Shown: positions 46,870-54,949 of the stretch, in pieces
Numbering within the stretch: position 1 is the stretch's first letter
Layout: each line of letters starts with the position of its first letter
DNA from: an uncultured archaeon
Lineage (GTDB): Archaea > Asgardarchaeota > Thorarchaeia > Thorarchaeales > Thorarchaeaceae
NCBI GenBank assembly: GCA_964610875.1
Contig: CAZSWP010000022.1
Span: 1 to 60,982, forward strand
Length of the DNA: 60,982 bases
Reading direction: 5' to 3'
Position numbers and translations under genes: made by a program
Notes under the pieces: generated by a model
The model's database searches: none
Told to the model about the DNA's origin: nothing
Seen by the model: the letters and a program-made list of their open reading frames with translations, nothing else

Positions 46870-47008
46870 TTACTTAGACTCCCAACAAAGACAATGTATG
46901 TAAATCAATTTGCATAAGCTGTTACAAACTTGTTTTTCCTTTGAGGGATATCTACTTCATCTATAAAGGATTTCTTACAATAAATGACATTTCCTATTTT
47001 CAATAGAT

Positions 47009-49366
47009 GTGTATAAAAGAAATAAAAGAGTGTTTAATGTATGTTATAACGAGTTGTGTGCTTTGGACCTAGGATTCGTGAATCTCTCATTTCTATTTCC
47101 GAGTTGTCTATCGATTATGCAATTTGGTATCAATACTATAATTCTTATAATTTCCAAGTTAGTAATGTTTTTCTTCGGAATGAGTCATAGAAACCCCTCT
47201 GACTTGGAATGGTCACTTGATGAACGCATGAATGAAACATGTGATTCTCGTCCCAAAGAGACTCCAATATTATCAGTTAATCCGGAAATTAACAACCTGT
47301 TGAAAGAAATACAACAGCATATTTTAAACATACAATTAGTAGCCTTGGAAATTCATTCAGGCTGGGATCATGGAGCAGGTCTCAACACTGTATTTCATGA
47401 GAATCATCATGCAAAGGAAAAAATCCAAATTGCAGAGGAGATTGCAAAAAGCTGTACGAATAAAGAAGTTCTTGAACACATATGGAACATAGATTCCCTT
47501 CGTGCGAGTTCCAGTATCTCTGCATGGGATAGAATTCGCCGTGGAAAAAAGAAGATCATGATTGATGTGATGAGAACTGATGATGATAGTATCGCTAAAC
47601 CCGGTCTGGTTGCTTTCTCACGTGTTGAGATGATTGGTGGTCGTTTTCTTTACAAGATTATGATAAAGAACATCAGTGAGTATGTCGTCACTGATGTTAC
47701 TACAACACTTGTTAGTTACCCGAACGAATGCATGGACCTTACTGGAGATGCAATTCATATATGCAGGCGTTTGGAGGGTGGCGGATTCATAAACACAGCG
47801 TTTGTATTGACACCAAAAAAAGACTGCGTGGAAGGCAGCATATTATCCAACATCGCATACGTGGACTACAAAGATAAACTGTCCATACTGCCTGTTGAAC
47901 CTGCAATTATTCGATCAATTTGTGATCTACTGAAACCTTTAGAATCATCCACTGATTCATTAAACAAAACACTCACTAAATTATTAGCAAAAACTCAAAC
48001 AAAGAAATTGGAATGGAATCCAAGAATACTCTTCAAGAAGACTATTGCTCTACTCCCAAAGTTGAATTTTTACATCGTGGATGACAGTGAATATGAAAGC
48101 GAAAATAAATTCAAAGGGAAAATACGTGGGCTAGCAATTGGAAAATATACCGAGAAGAAGATAGCCGTAGTGCTTCACTTCGAGGGCGAAGTTAATGGTA
48201 AATCAACTGATGTCTGTGTAGAGATGTTTGGTGATGATGAAGCTATGCTACCGAATACAATTGAAGAATTGTCGGGTATGATGAATGCATGGCTATGTCT
48301 CAGTTGTGGTGGAGAGCTCAATGTAGATCATATAATGCAATTAGCAACAGGTAGTGTAATCCAATGTCCCTATTGTGGACATTCATTATCTGCAGATCTA
48401 TACGAACGAGAGAAAAAGACTATCAAACCACAATTAATGAAAAGCAATCTTTCGTCAGCACTAATTGCTGAATCGGAAATTATGGAAGGACAGGATCTAA
48501 TCTTCGAAAGTCAACAACAAACAGTAGAGGCAATAGAACTCAGTTCTAAGCCTAGAGATTATAGCATTTTAAGAGGTCATGAGATTATAGGCGGGAAATT
48601 TCATTACAAAGTCAAAATTATAAATAATACCAATTATGTCATCACAAATGTAGTTACTACAATTGTATCTTATCCACGGGATTGTTTAATACTAGAATCA
48701 GATGTATCAAGATTCATTTTACGCATTGAAGGTGGGGGTTTCAGATCATTTGAATTTGTTTTCCATCCTACAAAAGATTGTGTAGAGGGAAAAATAATTT
48801 CTACAGTTTCAATTGTTGATATGAAAGACAATCTTCATTCATTTCCAGTGAGGGAAGTAACACTCAAGTCTGTTTGTGATTTACTGAAGCCGCTCGAAAC
48901 CTCAGTGAAATCAATGGAACTTTTACTACCTGATTTTACATCAGCATCTGAAGAAGTTGTATTGGATTGGAATTCAAGAGTCCTCTACATAAAAGTAAAA
49001 CATCTACTTCCAAGTTCGAATTTCTTCATTGTGGATGAAAGTACTGAATCAAAGAATGGTCAGTTTGAAGCTGTAATCAGAGGTTTTGCTGAAGGCAAAT
49101 ATACCAAGAAACGTATTGCCTCAGTTATTCATATTAGTGGTCATCAAGATGAAGTAAAATCAACTGTAAAGATTGACGTTATCGGTGAAGATATCACTAT
49201 GTTGCCAACTGCAGTGATTGAATTGAAGGAATCATTGAACTCTTGGATATGTCTATGCTGTGGTGGAAAGATATCAGGGAGTCAAGTACTGAAAATCAAG
49301 GGATCCTACGTTGTTTCCTGTGAGTTTTGCGGTGAATCACTAAGCAAGGAACTATATTCTATTTAA
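47009..49366 (+). CDS. Protein with two tandem coatomer/adaptin appendage-like modules, each ending in a zinc ribbon
   Basis: Clear internal duplication (GGRFLYKIMIKN/GGKFHYKVKIIN, SYP, P.KDCVEG, CDLLKPLE, GKYT.K.IA, CxxC-x19-CxxC); fold assignment is inference; true start probably ~47180. Confidence 0.75.
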   Translation: MYKRNKRVFNVCYNELCALDLGFVNLSFLFPSCLSIMQFGINTIILIISKLVMFFFGMSHRNPSDLEWSLDERMNETCDSRPKETPILSVNPEINNLLKEIQQHILNIQLVALEIHSGWDHGAGLNTVFHENHHAKEKIQIAEEIAKSCTNKEVLEHIWNIDSLRASSSISAWDRIRRGKKKIMIDVMRTDDDSIAKPGLVAFSRVEMIGGRFLYKIMIKNISEYVVTDVTTTLVSYPNECMDLTGDAIHICRRLEGGGFINTAFVLTPKKDCVEGSILSNIAYVDYKDKLSILPVEPAIIRSICDLLKPLESSTDSLNKTLTKLLAKTQTKKLEWNPRILFKKTIALLPKLNFYIVDDSEYESENKFKGKIRGLAIGKYTEKKIAVVLHFEGEVNGKSTDVCVEMFGDDEAMLPNTIEELSGMMNAWLCLSCGGELNVDHIMQLATGSVIQCPYCGHSLSADLYEREKKTIKPQLMKSNLSSALIAESEIMEGQDLIFESQQQTVEAIELSSKPRDYSILRGHEIIGGKFHYKVKIINNTNYVITNVVTTIVSYPRDCLILESDVSRFILRIEGGGFRSFEFVFHPTKDCVEGKIISTVSIVDMKDNLHSFPVREVTLKSVCDLLKPLETSVKSMELLLPDFTSASEEVVLDWNSRVLYIKVKHLLPSSNFFIVDESTESKNGQFEAVIRGFAEGKYTKKRIASVIHISGHQDEVKSTVKIDVIGEDITMLPTAVIELKESLNSWICLCCGGKISGSQVLKIKGSYVVSCEFCGESLSKELYSI

Positions 49367-49452
49367 AAGAAAACTAATTGGCATATAGTTTCATCACCAT
49401 TAGAATTAATATAGTGGAATGATTTGCATATTTGATAAGGGGTTGAAGAGAT

Positions 49453-52400
49453 GTGGTAAGTAAATGCGGGTTCCGTATCTTGATATTTGCTATTTTTTCG
49501 ATTATGGTGTCTATCGCCGGGACTTTGTATATTTCCTATAATTCTGCGTTTTTGACTCCAAATCGAATTAATTCAAATACTGACATTAATACCAAATTGA
49601 TAGGAAGTTGGAAGGAAACCGGAGCTGTTGATTTTTTTGATTATACCGATTATGGGATACTTGCTGCGGGTGAGTCATTATTTTGTGTTCACTATAGCTC
49701 AGAAGATGACCTCTCTCTTTCCTCTGAATTAGATATTGGGTATGAGCTTATTGATATGGACATTCAAGGTAAGTATGCCTATATCATTGATAAATCAGAG
49801 TCTCTTAATATTGTGAACATTTCTAATATTTGCAATTTTCAGTTAATTACTAGGTATACTGGATTAAATACAGCAAAGAAAATCACAGTTAATGGTTCTA
49901 ATGCGTACATAGCATCGTATAGAAATGGGCTGAAAATCCTTGATATTTCAAATAGTACGGAACCTAAATTATGCAGTGGCATTAATTTTGAAGGAGAAGC
50001 TAGAGATTCAGAAGCAATAGGAAAGAATCTTCTAATTGCATCTGATGAAGGTCTTAAGATTTATGATTTATCAAATGCAAGTGAACCAGTAGAAATATCG
50101 ACAATGTCTAGTGTTGGCATTGCTCGAGGAATTACCATCAGAAGCAATACTGCGTACGTTGCATGTGATAGGGGTCTTAGAACGATTGACATTACGAATA
50201 TTTCAGATGCATCAATCTTGGATTATGTAATGACTGGTCACAATCCTTCTGATGTATTTCTTAATGAGGAAATTGCTTATGTGCCATCACCATCATCTGG
50301 TGTTGCTATTGTGAATATCAAGCATCCTGATGATCTAAATGTTCTTGGATCATTTGGAACGCTAGTTCCGGTTGTAGCAAAATCCTGGAATAACATAATG
50401 TGTGTTTGTGATTCAGTCTATGGATTTTTCTTATACATCATTGATTCAGATGGCGATGGTATTTCAGATATTGATGAAGCCGAGTATGGTACAAATCCTA
50501 CACTCTCAGATTCCGATGCTGATTTACTGTCTGACTACACAGAGATATTTGAAACTCAAACGGACCCTCTGAATCCAGATTCTGATTCAGATACATGTAC
50601 TGATGGCTGGGAGGTCCAATGGGGGTTTGATCCACTGCTTTTTGATTCTGATTTGGATCCTGATGATGATGACTTAACTAATGAGCAAGAATTTTTGCTC
50701 GGAACGAATCCGACCAATTGGGATTCTGACAACGATTCATTACCTGATTCAGAGATCTATGACTACGGTACTAATCCATTAAGCAGTGATTCTGACAATG
50801 ATACATTACCTGATGGTTATGAAGTAATGTTCGGATTAGATCCATTGGTTAATGATGCACAATCAGACAAAGACAATGATGGTTTAAGTAACATTCTTGA
50901 ATTCAACTTGGGAACAAATCCATCATCAATTGATACCGATAATGATGGTTTCTCCGATTATTACGAATATATGCATGACATGGATCCGTTGACCCCCAAT
51001 TTCTCATCCATATTATTTCCTGTTGCAGTGACTTTGCTTTTTTCAGCTATATCAATTGCTCCTTTTTTTGCCAAAAAAAGAAAATTTTCCATTTTTCAAA
51101 ACCACTTTAAGCGACCCCAATATGTAACAGAACAGGATACATTGGAACGGGTTGAAAATATTCTTCCCAAATTTGACTATTTGATACTTGAAGAAGATTT
51201 TGACTTGATTTCTAGCATCTATGATTACCTTTCTGATGTACTTGACAAATTCTTGAATATACACTATGATTTGGACAGTAAAGAATTTCATTCATTAAAG
51301 AAAAGGATAGCAGCAAGATACATGGCTTTACCGAATCTGCATCATTTAAAAACTAGGTCCTTAATCGTGTCCATTCTTGTCATCATTTCTTTGATACCTA
51401 GTATATTATTACGATACTTGCCAGCAGGTCTAACCTACTTTGTGTACACATACCCACTTTTCATAGCAATCACTGTTGGCTACTTCGAAAACAGAAAAAT
51501 AACATTGTTCTCATCTCTAAGTTCTTTATTCATAATGATGTTTACGAACCTATACTACCAAATTAATATCAACAGTATATTATCATTCTTGTACGCGACG
51601 GAATTCTTGATTCTACTTGTACTATCTGCAGTTATAATAGTGCTCACAGTAGCAATATCCAAAATAAAGCAGTTCCAAGAATTCAATTCAAGGATTGAGA
51701 GATACGTGTCAGCCGCTGATTACGCATTAGACTATGATAGGAATCTTGCATCTCTGCTTTATGAAAGAGTATTTGCGACTCTGAATGAAAGATCCAATTA
51801 CAATTACAGAAACCTTCCTGAATATCAAATATCACAATACAAACATGTAGTAATGCAGCTATCAAAACTGGAACCTGACAAGTATGACGAATCCATTTTG
51901 GATACACCTGACTCCTTTGATTCAATTTTGGAGGAAATGAAAGCACCTGCATATTCAACAACGGGTGATGTGAAGTCACTAAGAGGATGTGAACTCGTTG
52001 GCGGACATTTTGAATACAAAGTAAAGGTGGATAATGACTCAGGGTTTGTTATCACCAATGTGAGAGTTACAATCGTGTCCTATCCTGAGGAATCACTAAA
52101 TCTTACAGGGGATAGAATGAGGTCTGTAAACAGAATTGAAGTTGGTGGTTTCCGTTCACTACAATTTCTATTTGGTCCAACAAAAGACTGTGTAGAGGGT
52201 ACCATTCAGGCTTTGGTGTCATATACAAATCCTGAAAATGTGACCCAGAATATTGAGGTTCAGCCTTATACAATAAAATCTGTATGTGATTTACTGAAGA
52301 AGAAGGAGATTTCACTCGAAGGATTCATTGATGTTCAAAAAGACATGAATAAATCAAGCAAGGAGTTCTCTATTGATTGGAACTCTATTATTGCTTTCAA

Positions 52401-52788
52401 TAAAATCCAGCAAAATCTAACATCTAAGAATTTCCACATAGTAAGTCTTGAATCTGAAAGTGCAGGTGGTCAATTTATTGGTTCCATCCGAGGATTTGCT
52501 GAAGGAAAATATACGGGAAAAAGAATAGCTGTTATGATTTCTGTAACAGGATTTGAAGAAGGTGCTTCATCTCGAGTCCGAATAGATATACTCGGAGATG
52601 ATGTATCAATGCTACCAACAATCCTTTCAGAACTAGCAGATACCATAGATTCTTGGAATTGTATTAATTGTGGTGCGGCGTTTGACACTGCTGATGTCAT
52701 TATTCTAAAAACTGGAGGAACCGTAATATGTAGATTTTGTGAAACGGAAAATAGTGTTGAAAACCTTTCAGAGTTGAAATCAGAATAA
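49453..52788 (+). CDS. Receptor-like membrane protein: LVIVD propeller, TSP3-like Ca-binding repeats, 5 TM, cytoplasmic appendage-like module + zinc ribbon
   Basis: AYIASYRNGLKILDISNSTEP-type repeats; DSDGDGISDIDE...GTNP..DSD repeats; C-terminus homologous to the repeats of 47009-49366. Confidence 0.82.
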   Translation: MVSKCGFRILIFAIFSIMVSIAGTLYISYNSAFLTPNRINSNTDINTKLIGSWKETGAVDFFDYTDYGILAAGESLFCVHYSSEDDLSLSSELDIGYELIDMDIQGKYAYIIDKSESLNIVNISNICNFQLITRYTGLNTAKKITVNGSNAYIASYRNGLKILDISNSTEPKLCSGINFEGEARDSEAIGKNLLIASDEGLKIYDLSNASEPVEISTMSSVGIARGITIRSNTAYVACDRGLRTIDITNISDASILDYVMTGHNPSDVFLNEEIAYVPSPSSGVAIVNIKHPDDLNVLGSFGTLVPVVAKSWNNIMCVCDSVYGFFLYIIDSDGDGISDIDEAEYGTNPTLSDSDADLLSDYTEIFETQTDPLNPDSDSDTCTDGWEVQWGFDPLLFDSDLDPDDDDLTNEQEFLLGTNPTNWDSDNDSLPDSEIYDYGTNPLSSDSDNDTLPDGYEVMFGLDPLVNDAQSDKDNDGLSNILEFNLGTNPSSIDTDNDGFSDYYEYMHDMDPLTPNFSSILFPVAVTLLFSAISIAPFFAKKRKFSIFQNHFKRPQYVTEQDTLERVENILPKFDYLILEEDFDLISSIYDYLSDVLDKFLNIHYDLDSKEFHSLKKRIAARYMALPNLHHLKTRSLIVSILVIISLIPSILLRYLPAGLTYFVYTYPLFIAITVGYFENRKITLFSSLSSLFIMMFTNLYYQININSILSFLYATEFLILLVLSAVIIVLTVAISKIKQFQEFNSRIERYVSAADYALDYDRNLASLLYERVFATLNERSNYNYRNLPEYQISQYKHVVMQLSKLEPDKYDESILDTPDSFDSILEEMKAPAYSTTGDVKSLRGCELVGGHFEYKVKVDNDSGFVITNVRVTIVSYPEESLNLTGDRMRSVNRIEVGGFRSLQFLFGPTKDCVEGTIQALVSYTNPENVTQNIEVQPYTIKSVCDLLKKKEISLEGFIDVQKDMNKSSKEFSIDWNSIIAFNKIQQNLTSKNFHIVSLESESAGGQFIGSIRGFAEGKYTGKRIAVMISVTGFEEGASSRVRIDILGDDVSMLPTILSELADTIDSWNCINCGAAFDTADVIILKTGGTVICRFCETENSVENLSELKSE

Positions 52789-52814: not shown

Positions 52815-53300
52815 TCATATCATCCATTTCGGAACTTCTTCTTTGTATTGTAGAAATTCATCTCCAAATTTCTCTTCAAGAAGCATTTCTTCATAGTTTG
52901 CAAATTTCTTGTAAGCAATTGACAGGATTAGACAGAACCCCAGCGATATAAAGGACAGGGTTTGAAATGCTAGCCCAGTATAAAACAGCACTGTTCCTAA
53001 ATACATAGGATGCCTTGTCTTTGAAAATATGCCCTCAGTAACAAGAACTGGTTCATAGACATGGAAGAGATCTTTATGTGATCTGTCCATCAAGTATGCT
53101 CCAAATGCGAGGATTATTACTGCTGGTGGAATCGTTACCCAAAATGGGATACATGGTGCCGCAAAGATTGTCCAACGAATGAGAAAAGAATCCAATATCC
53201 AGATTATAAAAAAGACAATCATCAATATCATCTGGTACTCATGATTTCTAGGCATCTCACCTGAGAGATGTTCATGTCCTTCGCGTGGCATATTGTTCAC
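52815..53300 (-). CDS. Isoprenylcysteine carboxyl methyltransferase / PEMT family
   Basis: LVTEGIFSKTRHPMYLG, EEMLLEEKFGDEFLQYKEEVPKW. Confidence 0.88.
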   Translation of the reverse strand: MNNMPREGHEHLSGEMPRNHEYQMILMIVFFIIWILDSFLIRWTIFAAPCIPFWVTIPPAVIILAFGAYLMDRSHKDLFHVYEPVLVTEGIFSKTRHPMYLGTVLFYTGLAFQTLSFISLGFCLILSIAYKKFANYEEMLLEEKFGDEFLQYKEEVPKWMI

Positions 53301-53399: not shown

Positions 53400-54536
53400 G
53401 TGAATAATGAGGAACAAATTCTAAACGCAATAAAGTGGCGACAGTATGATTACTTGGATAGACTTGTATCCTATGAGCTCAAGGAATGGGGCTGGTCATG
53501 TTTGAGGAAGACCCTTTGTACTAAGACTGAAAAAGCGATAACAGCAAGACTGAGAGACGGTCTTTTACACATCATGGGATTTAGTACGATACGGGGAATC
53601 GATGCTGACCCTCTCGAAATTGTAAAAGGAATGAAAACTGAAGTTGATTCTCTTTCAGAGCTTCGCGGCTTGTGTTTCAGGATAGGTGAGAGCATCCTAT
53701 CAGATATGATTGAATCAAGAAATACATTCTTTCTTGACCACGAGAGGATGGCTTCCGGTCCATTTGCAGGAATGATACCTCGAATACTAGAAGTGCGGAC
53801 GAGTGAGATTCATGAACTAGAATCTACTGTATCCAAGTGGGATATAGTACAGACTGCTTACGGGTTCTCTATTATAGCAACTGGGGGAGTCTTAACAGAC
53901 AGTAGAAGCCCTGACCATCAGAGATTAGGTGATGCTCTATTGAAGGTGGCTGGATCTCTTGGAAAAAGAATTGTAGTAACTTCAAGTCCACTTCGCTTAG
54001 GTTCTGAAATTCGTGGCTTTGAGAATTGTAGTGAAGCAACTCGGGAGTTACTTTGGCACATCTTACGATTCAAAACCTACAGAGGTAAGCAGAAGATTCG
54101 TCAGTCGGCAAAATACATTGAGAAACATGGGGATTCACGCATTGTTCATTTACTACATAATTACCTCTCAAACTCCAGATACTACTATACTGCTGTCAAG
54201 ATTATGAGAGCTCTAGGCAATATTGGTATGCCAGAGTCTGCAGAGTACTTGTCGCCTTTCCTAGAACGAACTGGTAATTGGCGGACCAGTGCATTTAGAG
54301 CTATATCCTCCATTCCTGGTGAAAGTGTAACTGACATGCTGGTTGAACGATATAAGACGGGTGCTCGATATAGATATCAGATCTTACGTACACTTTGGTC
54401 AAGACCGCCTCAAGAGATAATCAAGCATATTGATACACTAAAGAGAATCACAGACGGGTGGCAGAGAAGGAGAATTGATAATCTCGAATCACGAGCACTC
54501 AAGCACATTGAGAAACTTGTTGCAATTGAGTCCTAA
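53400..54536 (+). CDS. HEAT-repeat (PBS lyase-like) protein
   Basis: RALGNIGMPESAEYLSPFL, WRTSAFRAISSIPGESVTDML helical repeats. Confidence 0.7.
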   Translation: MNNEEQILNAIKWRQYDYLDRLVSYELKEWGWSCLRKTLCTKTEKAITARLRDGLLHIMGFSTIRGIDADPLEIVKGMKTEVDSLSELRGLCFRIGESILSDMIESRNTFFLDHERMASGPFAGMIPRILEVRTSEIHELESTVSKWDIVQTAYGFSIIATGGVLTDSRSPDHQRLGDALLKVAGSLGKRIVVTSSPLRLGSEIRGFENCSEATRELLWHILRFKTYRGKQKIRQSAKYIEKHGDSRIVHLLHNYLSNSRYYYTAVKIMRALGNIGMPESAEYLSPFLERTGNWRTSAFRAISSIPGESVTDMLVERYKTGARYRYQILRTLWSRPPQEIIKHIDTLKRITDGWQRRRIDNLESRALKHIEKLVAIES

Positions 54537-54949
54537 GCACTTCCTATAGTTGCACCACAGAATGAACAAAGTATTCTCTCCCCCTTTGACATACTCTTGA
54601 GTTCTGAATCTGGTATCATTGCTCCACAAGTTGGACATCGATATGAAACAAGCTGTGAGTGATGTGCAGATAATTCTGACCATTGAGGGGTTAACACTAT
54701 CTCCTCACTCTTTGACACTCCCACAATAGATGAAGGAATACCATCTACTCTTTTTATTGTGACAATTGGATGATATCTTCCGCCGCTATCGAGCTCGCTT
54801 TCCTTTTTCTCGACATCTCTCTTTGCTATGAAATAAAGAGCTGCAAAGATAAGAAAAATGAAGCAAATGATAAAATCGTAAAAAGCCGTATTGTCTAATT
54901 GCAATAGTAGAGCGAACACGATACTCCCTTCAAGCTTGTTATTACTCAA
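54533..54949 (-). CDS. Single-TM protein with C-terminal CxxCG-x18-CxxC zinc ribbon
   Basis: FIICFIFLIFAALYFIAKR; CPTCGAMIPDSELKSMSKGERILCSFC. Confidence 0.7.
   Translation of the reverse strand: MSNNKLEGSIVFALLLQLDNTAFYDFIICFIFLIFAALYFIAKRDVEKKESELDSGGRYHPIVTIKRVDGIPSSIVGVSKSEEIVLTPQWSELSAHHSQLVSYRCPTCGAMIPDSELKSMSKGERILCSFCGATIGSA

Follow-up and report, generated by a model that had tools for sequence, protein, structure and literature searches.

Whether Asgard archaea possess relatives of the appendage or "ear" domains of eukaryotic vesicle coats, and to what kinds of protein such ears would be attached, is the question raised by two adjacent genes of an uncultured archaeon of the Thorarchaeales (GenBank assembly GCA_964610875.1, contig CAZSWP010000022.1, positions 1 to 60,982). 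This whole stretch of 60,982 nucleotides was analysed and is referred to below as the window, and the two genes, at positions 47,009 to 52,788, as open reading frames (ORFs) A and B. Both reading frames are open, point in the same direction and are separated by 86 nt, and together they contain three copies of a module of about 265 amino acids (aa), which is confidently predicted to fold as the ear of a eukaryotic coat adaptor, with an Ig-like sandwich and an alpha/beta platform. Beyond the fold, we favour the reading that the module is an archaeal adaptin/COPI-appendage-like domain which would act as a cytoplasmic protein-docking hub shared by membrane proteins. The genes and modules, the latter with their E-values against the hidden Markov model (HMM) of the family, are as follows:

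47009..49366 (+): ORF A (P0001), two-ear protein, 785 aa from the longest start
47615..48403 (+): ear module 1, ORF A aa 203-465, family HMM domain E 4.9e-97
48563..49357 (+): ear module 2, ORF A aa 519-783, family HMM domain E 2.5e-102
49453..52788 (+): ORF B (P0002), receptor-like membrane protein, 1111 aa
51967..52758 (+): ear module 3, ORF B aa 839-1102, family HMM domain E 5.7e-104

An earlier inspection of the letters without database searches, called here the sequence-only reading, had noticed a module of about 260 aa occurring three times in these genes, and the repeat was found again by the HMM at coordinates about 10 to 30 nt from the earlier ones. Modules 2 and 3 are 34 to 42% identical to module 1 and 45% identical to each other, and the alignment of the three copies contains 76 invariant columns and no large gaps. 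Chance is ruled out as an explanation of the repeat, because even the weakest pair, modules 1 and 3, is matched in BLASTP with an E-value of 2e-63 (37% identity over 250 residues, ungapped). The motifs that had been listed for the module are all present, namely the RG.E..GG.F.YKV block, EGGGF (which reads EVGGF in copy 3), P.KDCVEG, SVCDLLK, G.A.GKYT.K.IA and GDD..MLP. The terminal zinc ribbon recognised at that time also occurs in all three copies, each of which closes with CxxCG-x18/19-CxxC; its cysteines are residues 430, 433, 453 and 456 of ORF A in module 1 and lie at residues 1070-1096 of ORF B in module 3. The KDC and VCD motifs bring in two further cysteines, near-invariant, flanked by Asp and located in the same columns in all copies (residues 79-80 and 112-113 of the module 2 model). 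They sit in the sandwich near its junction with the platform and possibly form a second metal or redox site.

The structure was modelled with AlphaFold2 for module 2 (ORF A aa 512-785), using a family alignment with 91 members. The model has a mean predicted local distance difference test (pLDDT) score of 94.5 and a predicted template-modelling score (pTM) of 0.78, and it is composed of a beta-sandwich (residues 1-117), an alpha/beta platform (residues 118-235) and the zinc ribbon (residues 236-274), three parts that recur in each copy. An ear strand pattern followed by an alpha/beta platform had been proposed from the letters, and the two subdomains appear in the model in that order. In a Foldseek search against the PDB, the first 14 rows were all COPI or AP-2 appendages, including those of AP-2 alpha, AP-2 beta2 and gamma-COP, with the COPI leaf chain 9qpq_H as the best row (E 9.9e-10, TM-scores of 0.61 and 0.67). 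Alignment of the model with VIA-align gave the following matches, the deviations being root-mean-square deviations (rmsd):

9qpq_H (residues 720-953): Z 17.8, 226 residues aligned, rmsd 3.8
alpha-adaptin appendage: Z 16.5-17.0, 213 residues aligned, rmsd 3.9-4.3
beta2-adaptin appendage: Z 14.4-14.9, 208-209 residues aligned
gamma-COP appendage: Z 13.3, 214 residues aligned
AP-4 beta appendage, platform alone: Z 13.1, 114 residues aligned, rmsd 2.4
BBS9: Z 11.5, 189 residues aligned

Chain H of 9qpq is probably beta-COP, as indicated by its residue numbering (720-953) and by the fold search of the ESM Atlas, which returned beta-COP clusters with TM-scores of 0.63-0.67 over 222-225 residues. All VIA-align matches that span both subdomains are appendages or BBSome subunits, and matches to the sandwich only (TRAP-beta, transglutaminase and complement MG domains) have Z-scores of at most 12.4. 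The top Foldseek and VIA-align matches are thus the families that the sequence-only reading had named, namely beta- and gamma-COP of COPI, alpha- and beta2-adaptin and the GAE-platform part of the BBSome, and instead of a generic Ig domain joined to an unrelated fold, the searches found both subdomains matched together by appendages. Language-model features, which we take as a lead only, point to the eukaryotic Alpha_adaptin_C, Alpha_adaptinC2 and B2-adapt-app_C clusters (0.75-0.78), and the Pfam model GAE_BBS1 matches 9 of the 91 family members faintly (best E 0.0094). At the level of sequence, no Pfam or NCBIfam family matches the module at its cut-off, the Pfam coatomer and adaptin models give no match to ORF A or ORF B at E <= 1, and the Pfam appendage models are absent from the 25 most frequent families across the 91 members. 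Searched against the sequences of PDB chains, the module yielded only non-significant zinc-ribbon, Sir2 and arrestin rows (E >= 0.15). From the modelled structure we infer that the module and the eukaryotic appendages share a common ancestor.

The proteins that carry the ears differ considerably. ORF B starts with a GTG codon, ahead of which a GGGG motif is located, and its product is read as a signal or anchor segment (aa 9-27), an ectodomain, a transmembrane helix, a cytoplasmic loop, a cluster of four transmembrane helices, a linker and ear 3 with its zinc ribbon. The two regions in front of the ear are:

49534..51009 (+): predicted ectodomain of ORF B, aa 28-519; LVIVD beta-propeller, then acidic TSP3-type calcium-binding repeats
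51010..51660 (+): membrane region of ORF B, from a hydropathy scan and reading of the sequence

The Pfam family LVIVD is matched in four stretches (E 1.7e-18, 66.1 bits with a cut-off of 20.2) and TSP3_bac in three (E 5.2e-11, 42.6 bits with a cut-off of 25), and NCBIfam shows a weak similarity to the adhesion proteins CglD and MtsD. The first transmembrane helix (aa 520-538) is followed by a K/R-rich stretch and the loop, and the hydrophobic cluster at aa 633-736 is read as four helices. Ear 3 would be located in the cytoplasm, because of the K/R-rich stretch after the transmembrane helix, the even number of helices and the four-cysteine ribbon. ORF B is most likely a surface protein resembling a receptor or adhesin, in which the ear forms the inner tail. 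In a quick tree, ear 3 clusters with the module of a 517-aa protein from the closest relative (locus L009) with an approximate likelihood-ratio support (SH-aLRT) of 99.

ORF A consists of an N-terminal three-helix bundle, ear 1 with its zinc ribbon, a linker and ear 2 with its zinc ribbon. Six Thorarchaeota loci (L013-L016, L019, L037) encode orthologues of 723-783 aa in which the two modules occupy corresponding positions, and in the quick tree module 1 falls together with the first module of every two-ear orthologue (SH-aLRT 99), which indicates that the duplication of the ear is old. The orthologues begin near aa 88-95 of ORF A, and the true start may therefore be the ATG at 47228 (M74). 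The part specific to the longest frame (47009-47227, aa 1-73) is not conserved in the orthologues and has a hydrophobic stretch at aa 39-57. A TATA-like element, CTATAAAG, is present near 46951, upstream of ORF A. The sequence-only reading had described a soluble double-module protein beside a membrane protein with the same module; the membrane protein stands in the case of ORF B, but the solubility of ORF A is uncertain when the longest start with its hydrophobic stretch is considered, and depending on the true start codon the protein is likely soluble. Its N-terminal domain is:

47270..47593 (+): N-terminal helical domain of ORF A, aa 88-195; three-helix bundle, last helix basic

The AlphaFold2 model of this domain has a pLDDT of 85.5 and helices at residues 5-23, 34-61 and 65-108. 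An HMM of the domain matches the two-ear orthologues and the proteins P0040 and P0021 and nothing else. The profile search against the PDB gave just a weak cullin winged-helix row (E 0.008), and in the fold search no row reached E <= 0.001, designed bundles coming first. With no specific profile or fold match, the bundle could not be linked to Vps28-C, SB or MIT domains.

To what extent the ear is used elsewhere was assessed with a profile of the three copies, which retrieved 562 clusters (representatives at 50% identity), of which 153 had E <= 1e-30; a family alignment of 20 rows was used in the search for related loci, and a word-indexed search for homologues of near length gave at least 39 proteins. 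The named related loci all belong to metagenome-assembled genomes (MAGs) of Candidatus Thorarchaeota or unclassified Asgard archaea ("Promethearchaeota"), and the cluster names and Atlas taxa agree with this. In a sample of the phylum, 153 of 301 genomes contain a match: 71 of 76 in the window's own family, 65/68, 5/5 and 6/7 in three other families, and none of those sampled from several more (0/28, 0/21 and 0/19). So far the family has thus been seen in Thorarchaeota and unclassified Asgard genomes. As regards synteny, which the sequence-only reading had also proposed to survey, the adjacency of ORF A and ORF B recurs only in L009, and in the six other two-ear orthologues no ear gene comes next.

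Among 150 representatives, a transmembrane helix is predicted upstream of the module in 105, typically a single one located 50-70 aa before the ear, while 33 appear soluble; the zinc ribbon is kept in 100. The module is acidic, with a median isoelectric point (pI) of 5.6 in the family and 4.9 for the platform. The domains fused upstream are diverse and include SBP_bac_5, Beta_helix/NosD, SBBP, TSP3, LVIVD, FG-GAP/Big/Ig, LRR and TPR. Because it is attached to many unrelated ectodomains, to multi-pass membrane proteins and to soluble LRR/TPR proteins, the ear looks like a reusable module, mostly placed as a predicted cytoplasmic tail on varied surface proteins. Two layouts resemble a miniature trunk-plus-appendage, one being a 414-aa protein of a Thorarchaeota MAG (L033:1830-3074), in which TPR repeats (aa ~12-166) are directly followed by an ear without ribbon, and the other a 407-aa Thorarchaeota cluster of the ESM Atlas with HEAT_2 before the ear in 80% of its members (TM-score 0.81, rmsd 1.7). 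Some genomes have at least 8 scored copies of the ear, including tandem arrays of paralogues of 360-500 aa. In three such arrays (G254:C20:11533-19171, G251:C51:20904-27424 and G215:C15:4398-11266), at least four adjacent genes of about 350-510 aa each have an ear at the end. Most family representatives in this size range possess one or two transmembrane helices near the N-terminus, and the arrays suggest a rapid diversification of paralogues. Public records call the members "hypothetical protein" or "zinc ribbon domain-containing protein", or mislabel them, owing to the terminal ribbon, as "DNA-directed RNA polymerase subunit RPC12/RpoP"; the ear itself is annotated in none of them.

The appendages of AP-2 and COPI are hubs for short linear motifs. 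It is on account of this role and of the fold that we consider it fairly probable that the archaeal module is an appendage-like docking hub in the cytoplasm. Each repeat would begin with a beta-sandwich of Ig type, continue with a TBP-like alpha/beta platform and close with a C4 zinc ribbon, and the ear would dock other proteins in the cytoplasm as the eukaryotic appendages do. ORF B would expose its propeller and its calcium-binding TSP3-type repeats on the outside and keep the ear as a tail inside, and ORF A would be a conserved cytoplasmic protein offering two ears behind a small three-helix bundle. The common ear may then be the handle by which one cytoplasmic partner or machine recognises many membrane proteins, and such recognition could serve their clustering, sorting or turnover. 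Several points weigh against this reading. In eukaryotes the ear sits on a soluble adaptor and not on a membrane protein, so that the analogy may fail here. The identity to eukaryotic appendages is just 7-13%, and a search of the genome with PF02883, PF09066 and PF02296 found nothing; given this low identity and the missing match to the adaptin and coatomer models of Pfam, homology with the appendages rests on the predicted structure, and the sandwich on its own is a common fold. Furthermore, the topology of ORF B is derived from hydropathy, and conserved neighbours are absent around the window pair, around the paralogue of this genome on contig C8 and around 29 related loci.

How the module relates to known systems depends on the reference chosen. 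For the eukaryotic appendages, the PDB entries 9qpq_H, 5nzr_B, 1pzd/1r4x, 1w80/1b9k and 1e42/3h1z and the Pfam families Coatamer_beta_C with Coatomer_b_Cpla, COP-gamma_platf, and Alpha_adaptinC2 with Alpha_adaptin_C or B2-adapt-app_C were used. The modelled module resembles the COPI and AP-2 appendages in the order of an Ig-like sandwich and an alpha/beta platform (Z 13-18, 208-226 residues) and in its C-terminal position after a linker. It differs from them in the additional C4 zinc ribbon, in the low identity and missing Pfam match already mentioned, in the absence of a heterotetramer context and in its carriers, which are mostly membrane proteins and not soluble coat subunits. An Adaptin_N HEAT/ARM trunk was detected neither on ORF A, which has the three-helix bundle, nor on the membrane protein ORF B. 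In the BBSome subunits BBS2/7/9 (GAE and platform) and in FANCB/FAAP100, sandwich and platform are matched together as well (7kzp, Foldseek E 2e-6), with scores below those of adaptins and COPI; in the BBSome, propeller and ear share a single cytosolic polypeptide, but for ORF B the propeller is predicted to lie outside the cell.

Among archaea, Makarova et al. described "adaptin appendage regions" (IG and TBP) in several ESCRT systems and proposed them to be interaction hubs; their examples include Meth_adaptin loci with an appendage and a zinc ribbon, a GOLD-TM-appendage protein and Asgard fusions of Vps28-C, longin and appendage (Makarova et al., 2024, PMC11188069). By their description, these proteins resemble the present module in the IG and TBP-like region with an optional zinc ribbon, and they resemble the family in having an extracellular domain connected to the ear by a transmembrane linker and in the TPR and Ig-repeat fusions. 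In contrast to them, the window proteins have no ESCRT neighbourhood and no fusion to Vps28-C, SB, longin or UFM1-ligase domains, and the present family is greatly expanded and includes proteins with two ears as well as small membrane-anchored members in tandem arrays. Asgard Vps28/Vps23 fusions with adaptin/COPI C-terminal domains were reported by Liu et al. (2021, preprint 10.1101/2020.10.19.343400), and stand-alone B2-adapt-app_C or Alpha_adaptinC2 Pfam matches, not fused to Adaptin_N, by Eme et al. (2023, PMC10307638). The latter are likewise Asgard appendage subdomains without Adaptin_N; however, they are sparse single subdomains detected by Pfam, whereas the present family contains both subdomains and is missed by those models.

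The genome encodes four full ears, the three in the window and one on contig C8. The fourth (C8:8607-10892; L004:31-2316, L038) ends a protein of 761 aa, in which the N-terminal 490 aa contain several CxxC pairs, and this is the best-conserved ear protein among the Thorarchaeota genomes (E about 1e-118 in many); its gene is flanked by housekeeping genes, without conserved neighbours or ESCRT families. On contig C48 (7374-7751; L005:1468-1848), an ORF of 126 aa contains only the second half of the platform and the zinc ribbon (HMM positions 156-265) and represents a truncated relic or else a half-module that stands alone. Of the module, several further ORFs of the genome have the ribbon only, and one of these is in the window:

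54533..54949 (-): small ribbon ORF, 138 aa; N-terminal hydrophobic segment, C-terminal helix and CxxC...CxxC ribbon

Its last ~55 residues correspond to the end of the module (HMM positions 209-264, E 1.5e-6), and in BLASTP it aligns with the C-terminal ends of numerous family members (best E 9e-8), so that the ribbon unit apparently also exists alone as a small membrane-anchored protein. Besides this ORF, the neighbours in the window are a ResIII helicase, a PEMT/ICMT-type methyltransferase, a weakly HEAT-like protein and an aldehyde:ferredoxin oxidoreductase. The methyltransferase (52815-53300, -), whose gene converges with ORF B, is a membrane protein of 161 aa and of the PEMT or isoprenylcysteine carboxyl methyltransferase type (PEMT E 2.1e-10); no connection between it and the ear genes emerged. 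The gene at 53400-54536 (+, 378 aa), directly downstream of the pair, has a weak HEAT_2 match (aa 252-327, E 6.6e-4). It was considered as a "trunk" partner and rejected, as the HEAT_2 match is weak, the Atlas clusters are generic bacterial HEAT proteins and no homologue lies beside other ear genes. The stretch itself is present in two microbial-mat DNA runs of one study, possibly the source sample, and no RNA run was listed as containing it.

No adaptin trunk, sigma/mu-type, ESCRT or GTPase gene adjoins the window pair, and among 92 neighbours of the 29 related loci no trafficking, GTPase, ubiquitin or ESCRT family recurs. The genomic context thus speaks neither for a dedicated coat nor for a connection of this locus with ESCRT. 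The ESCRT-III (Snf7) genes are on contigs C5 and C1 and not on the ear-bearing contigs C22 and C8, and a search of the genome for VPS28 gave no match, which is uninformative, as none was obtained in the control genomes either. When ears 2 and 3, one from each protein, were co-folded without controls, both runs scored 0.00, which is evidence neither for nor against an interaction.

These observations also bear on what else the ears might be. The sequence-only reading had suggested an archaeal proto-coat or adaptor system from the gene pair, and a dedicated pair of the two proteins for bending or sorting membrane would indeed agree with the appendage fold, the co-directed and closely spaced genes, their adjacency in L009 and the soluble solenoid-plus-ear fusions of the family, that is the TPR protein of L033 and the HEAT_2-bearing Atlas cluster. 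However, the six other two-ear orthologues lack a following ear gene, no trunk, sigma/mu-type, GTPase, ESCRT or scaffold gene is located nearby, the appendage models of Pfam match nothing in the genome, the ears are found mainly on membrane proteins, a single relative retains the adjacency, and the solubility of ORF A is uncertain. This part of the earlier proposal is not supported, and we regard such a pair as improbable. Unlikely, too, is a role as ESCRT-linked cargo adaptors, functional analogues of ESCRT-0 that would pass membrane proteins to ESCRT-I/II/III, as proposed by Makarova et al. (2024). The published context of appendages and ESCRT in Meth_adaptin loci, the Vps28-C domain in Asgard proteins and the presence of ESCRT-III genes in this genome are consistent with it, but these genes lie on other contigs, VPS28 was not matched (with the reservation made above), the bundle of ORF A gave no match to Vps28-C, SB or MIT, and no ESCRT family occurs among the 92 neighbours.

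The receptor-like architectures, with a solute-binding protein, propellers or LRR upstream, could also belong to transmembrane signalling, in which the ectodomain would sense a ligand and the TBP-like platform with the zinc ribbon would bind nucleic acid or a regulator. Zinc ribbons often bind nucleic acids, the platform fold is TBP-like, and some members are labelled RpoP-like in databases. On the other hand, the acidic character of the module, and of the platform in particular, argues weakly against nucleic-acid binding, the best match of the platform is the AP-4 beta appendage and not TBP, no known signalling domain is fused, and all sequence matches of the zinc ribbon are non-significant, so that signalling appears very improbable. 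Scarcely more credit is given to a likeness of fold without common descent or function, in which a generic Ig domain together with a helix-grip domain would be a sub-membrane anchor or oligomerisation unit. The low identity, the lack of any matching sequence model and the individual commonness of both subdomain folds would fit this explanation, but the two subdomains together, over 208-226 residues, find counterparts in appendage and BBSome families only, these unit matches exceed single-domain matches by 4-5 Z units, and the independent language-model features indicate the same families. The boldest reading is one that we judge to be a long shot: the ear would be a universal cytoplasmic sorting handle on dozens of Thorarchaeal surface proteins and ORF A a soluble bivalent adaptor, with one cytoplasmic machine gathering, internalising or trafficking the ear-bearing proteins. 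If this were true, it would represent a functioning cargo-adaptor system predating the eukaryotic coats with reversed wiring, the ear being on the cargo instead of the coat.

Appendage-like domains in Asgard and other archaea have already been published (Liu et al., 2021; Eme et al., 2023; Makarova et al., 2024), and the window proteins are unannotated examples of this known kind of domain, with architectures of their own and without an ESCRT context. As appendages are the recruitment hubs of eukaryotic vesicle coats, their archaeal relatives bear on the origin of the trafficking machinery. To these the locus adds a well-modelled example from a large unannotated family, in which the ear would mainly be the inner tail of receptor-like membrane proteins. 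Without a shared partner of the ears, the finding amounts to structural annotation; if such a partner were found, adaptor-like sorting of membrane proteins in Asgard archaea would become directly testable.

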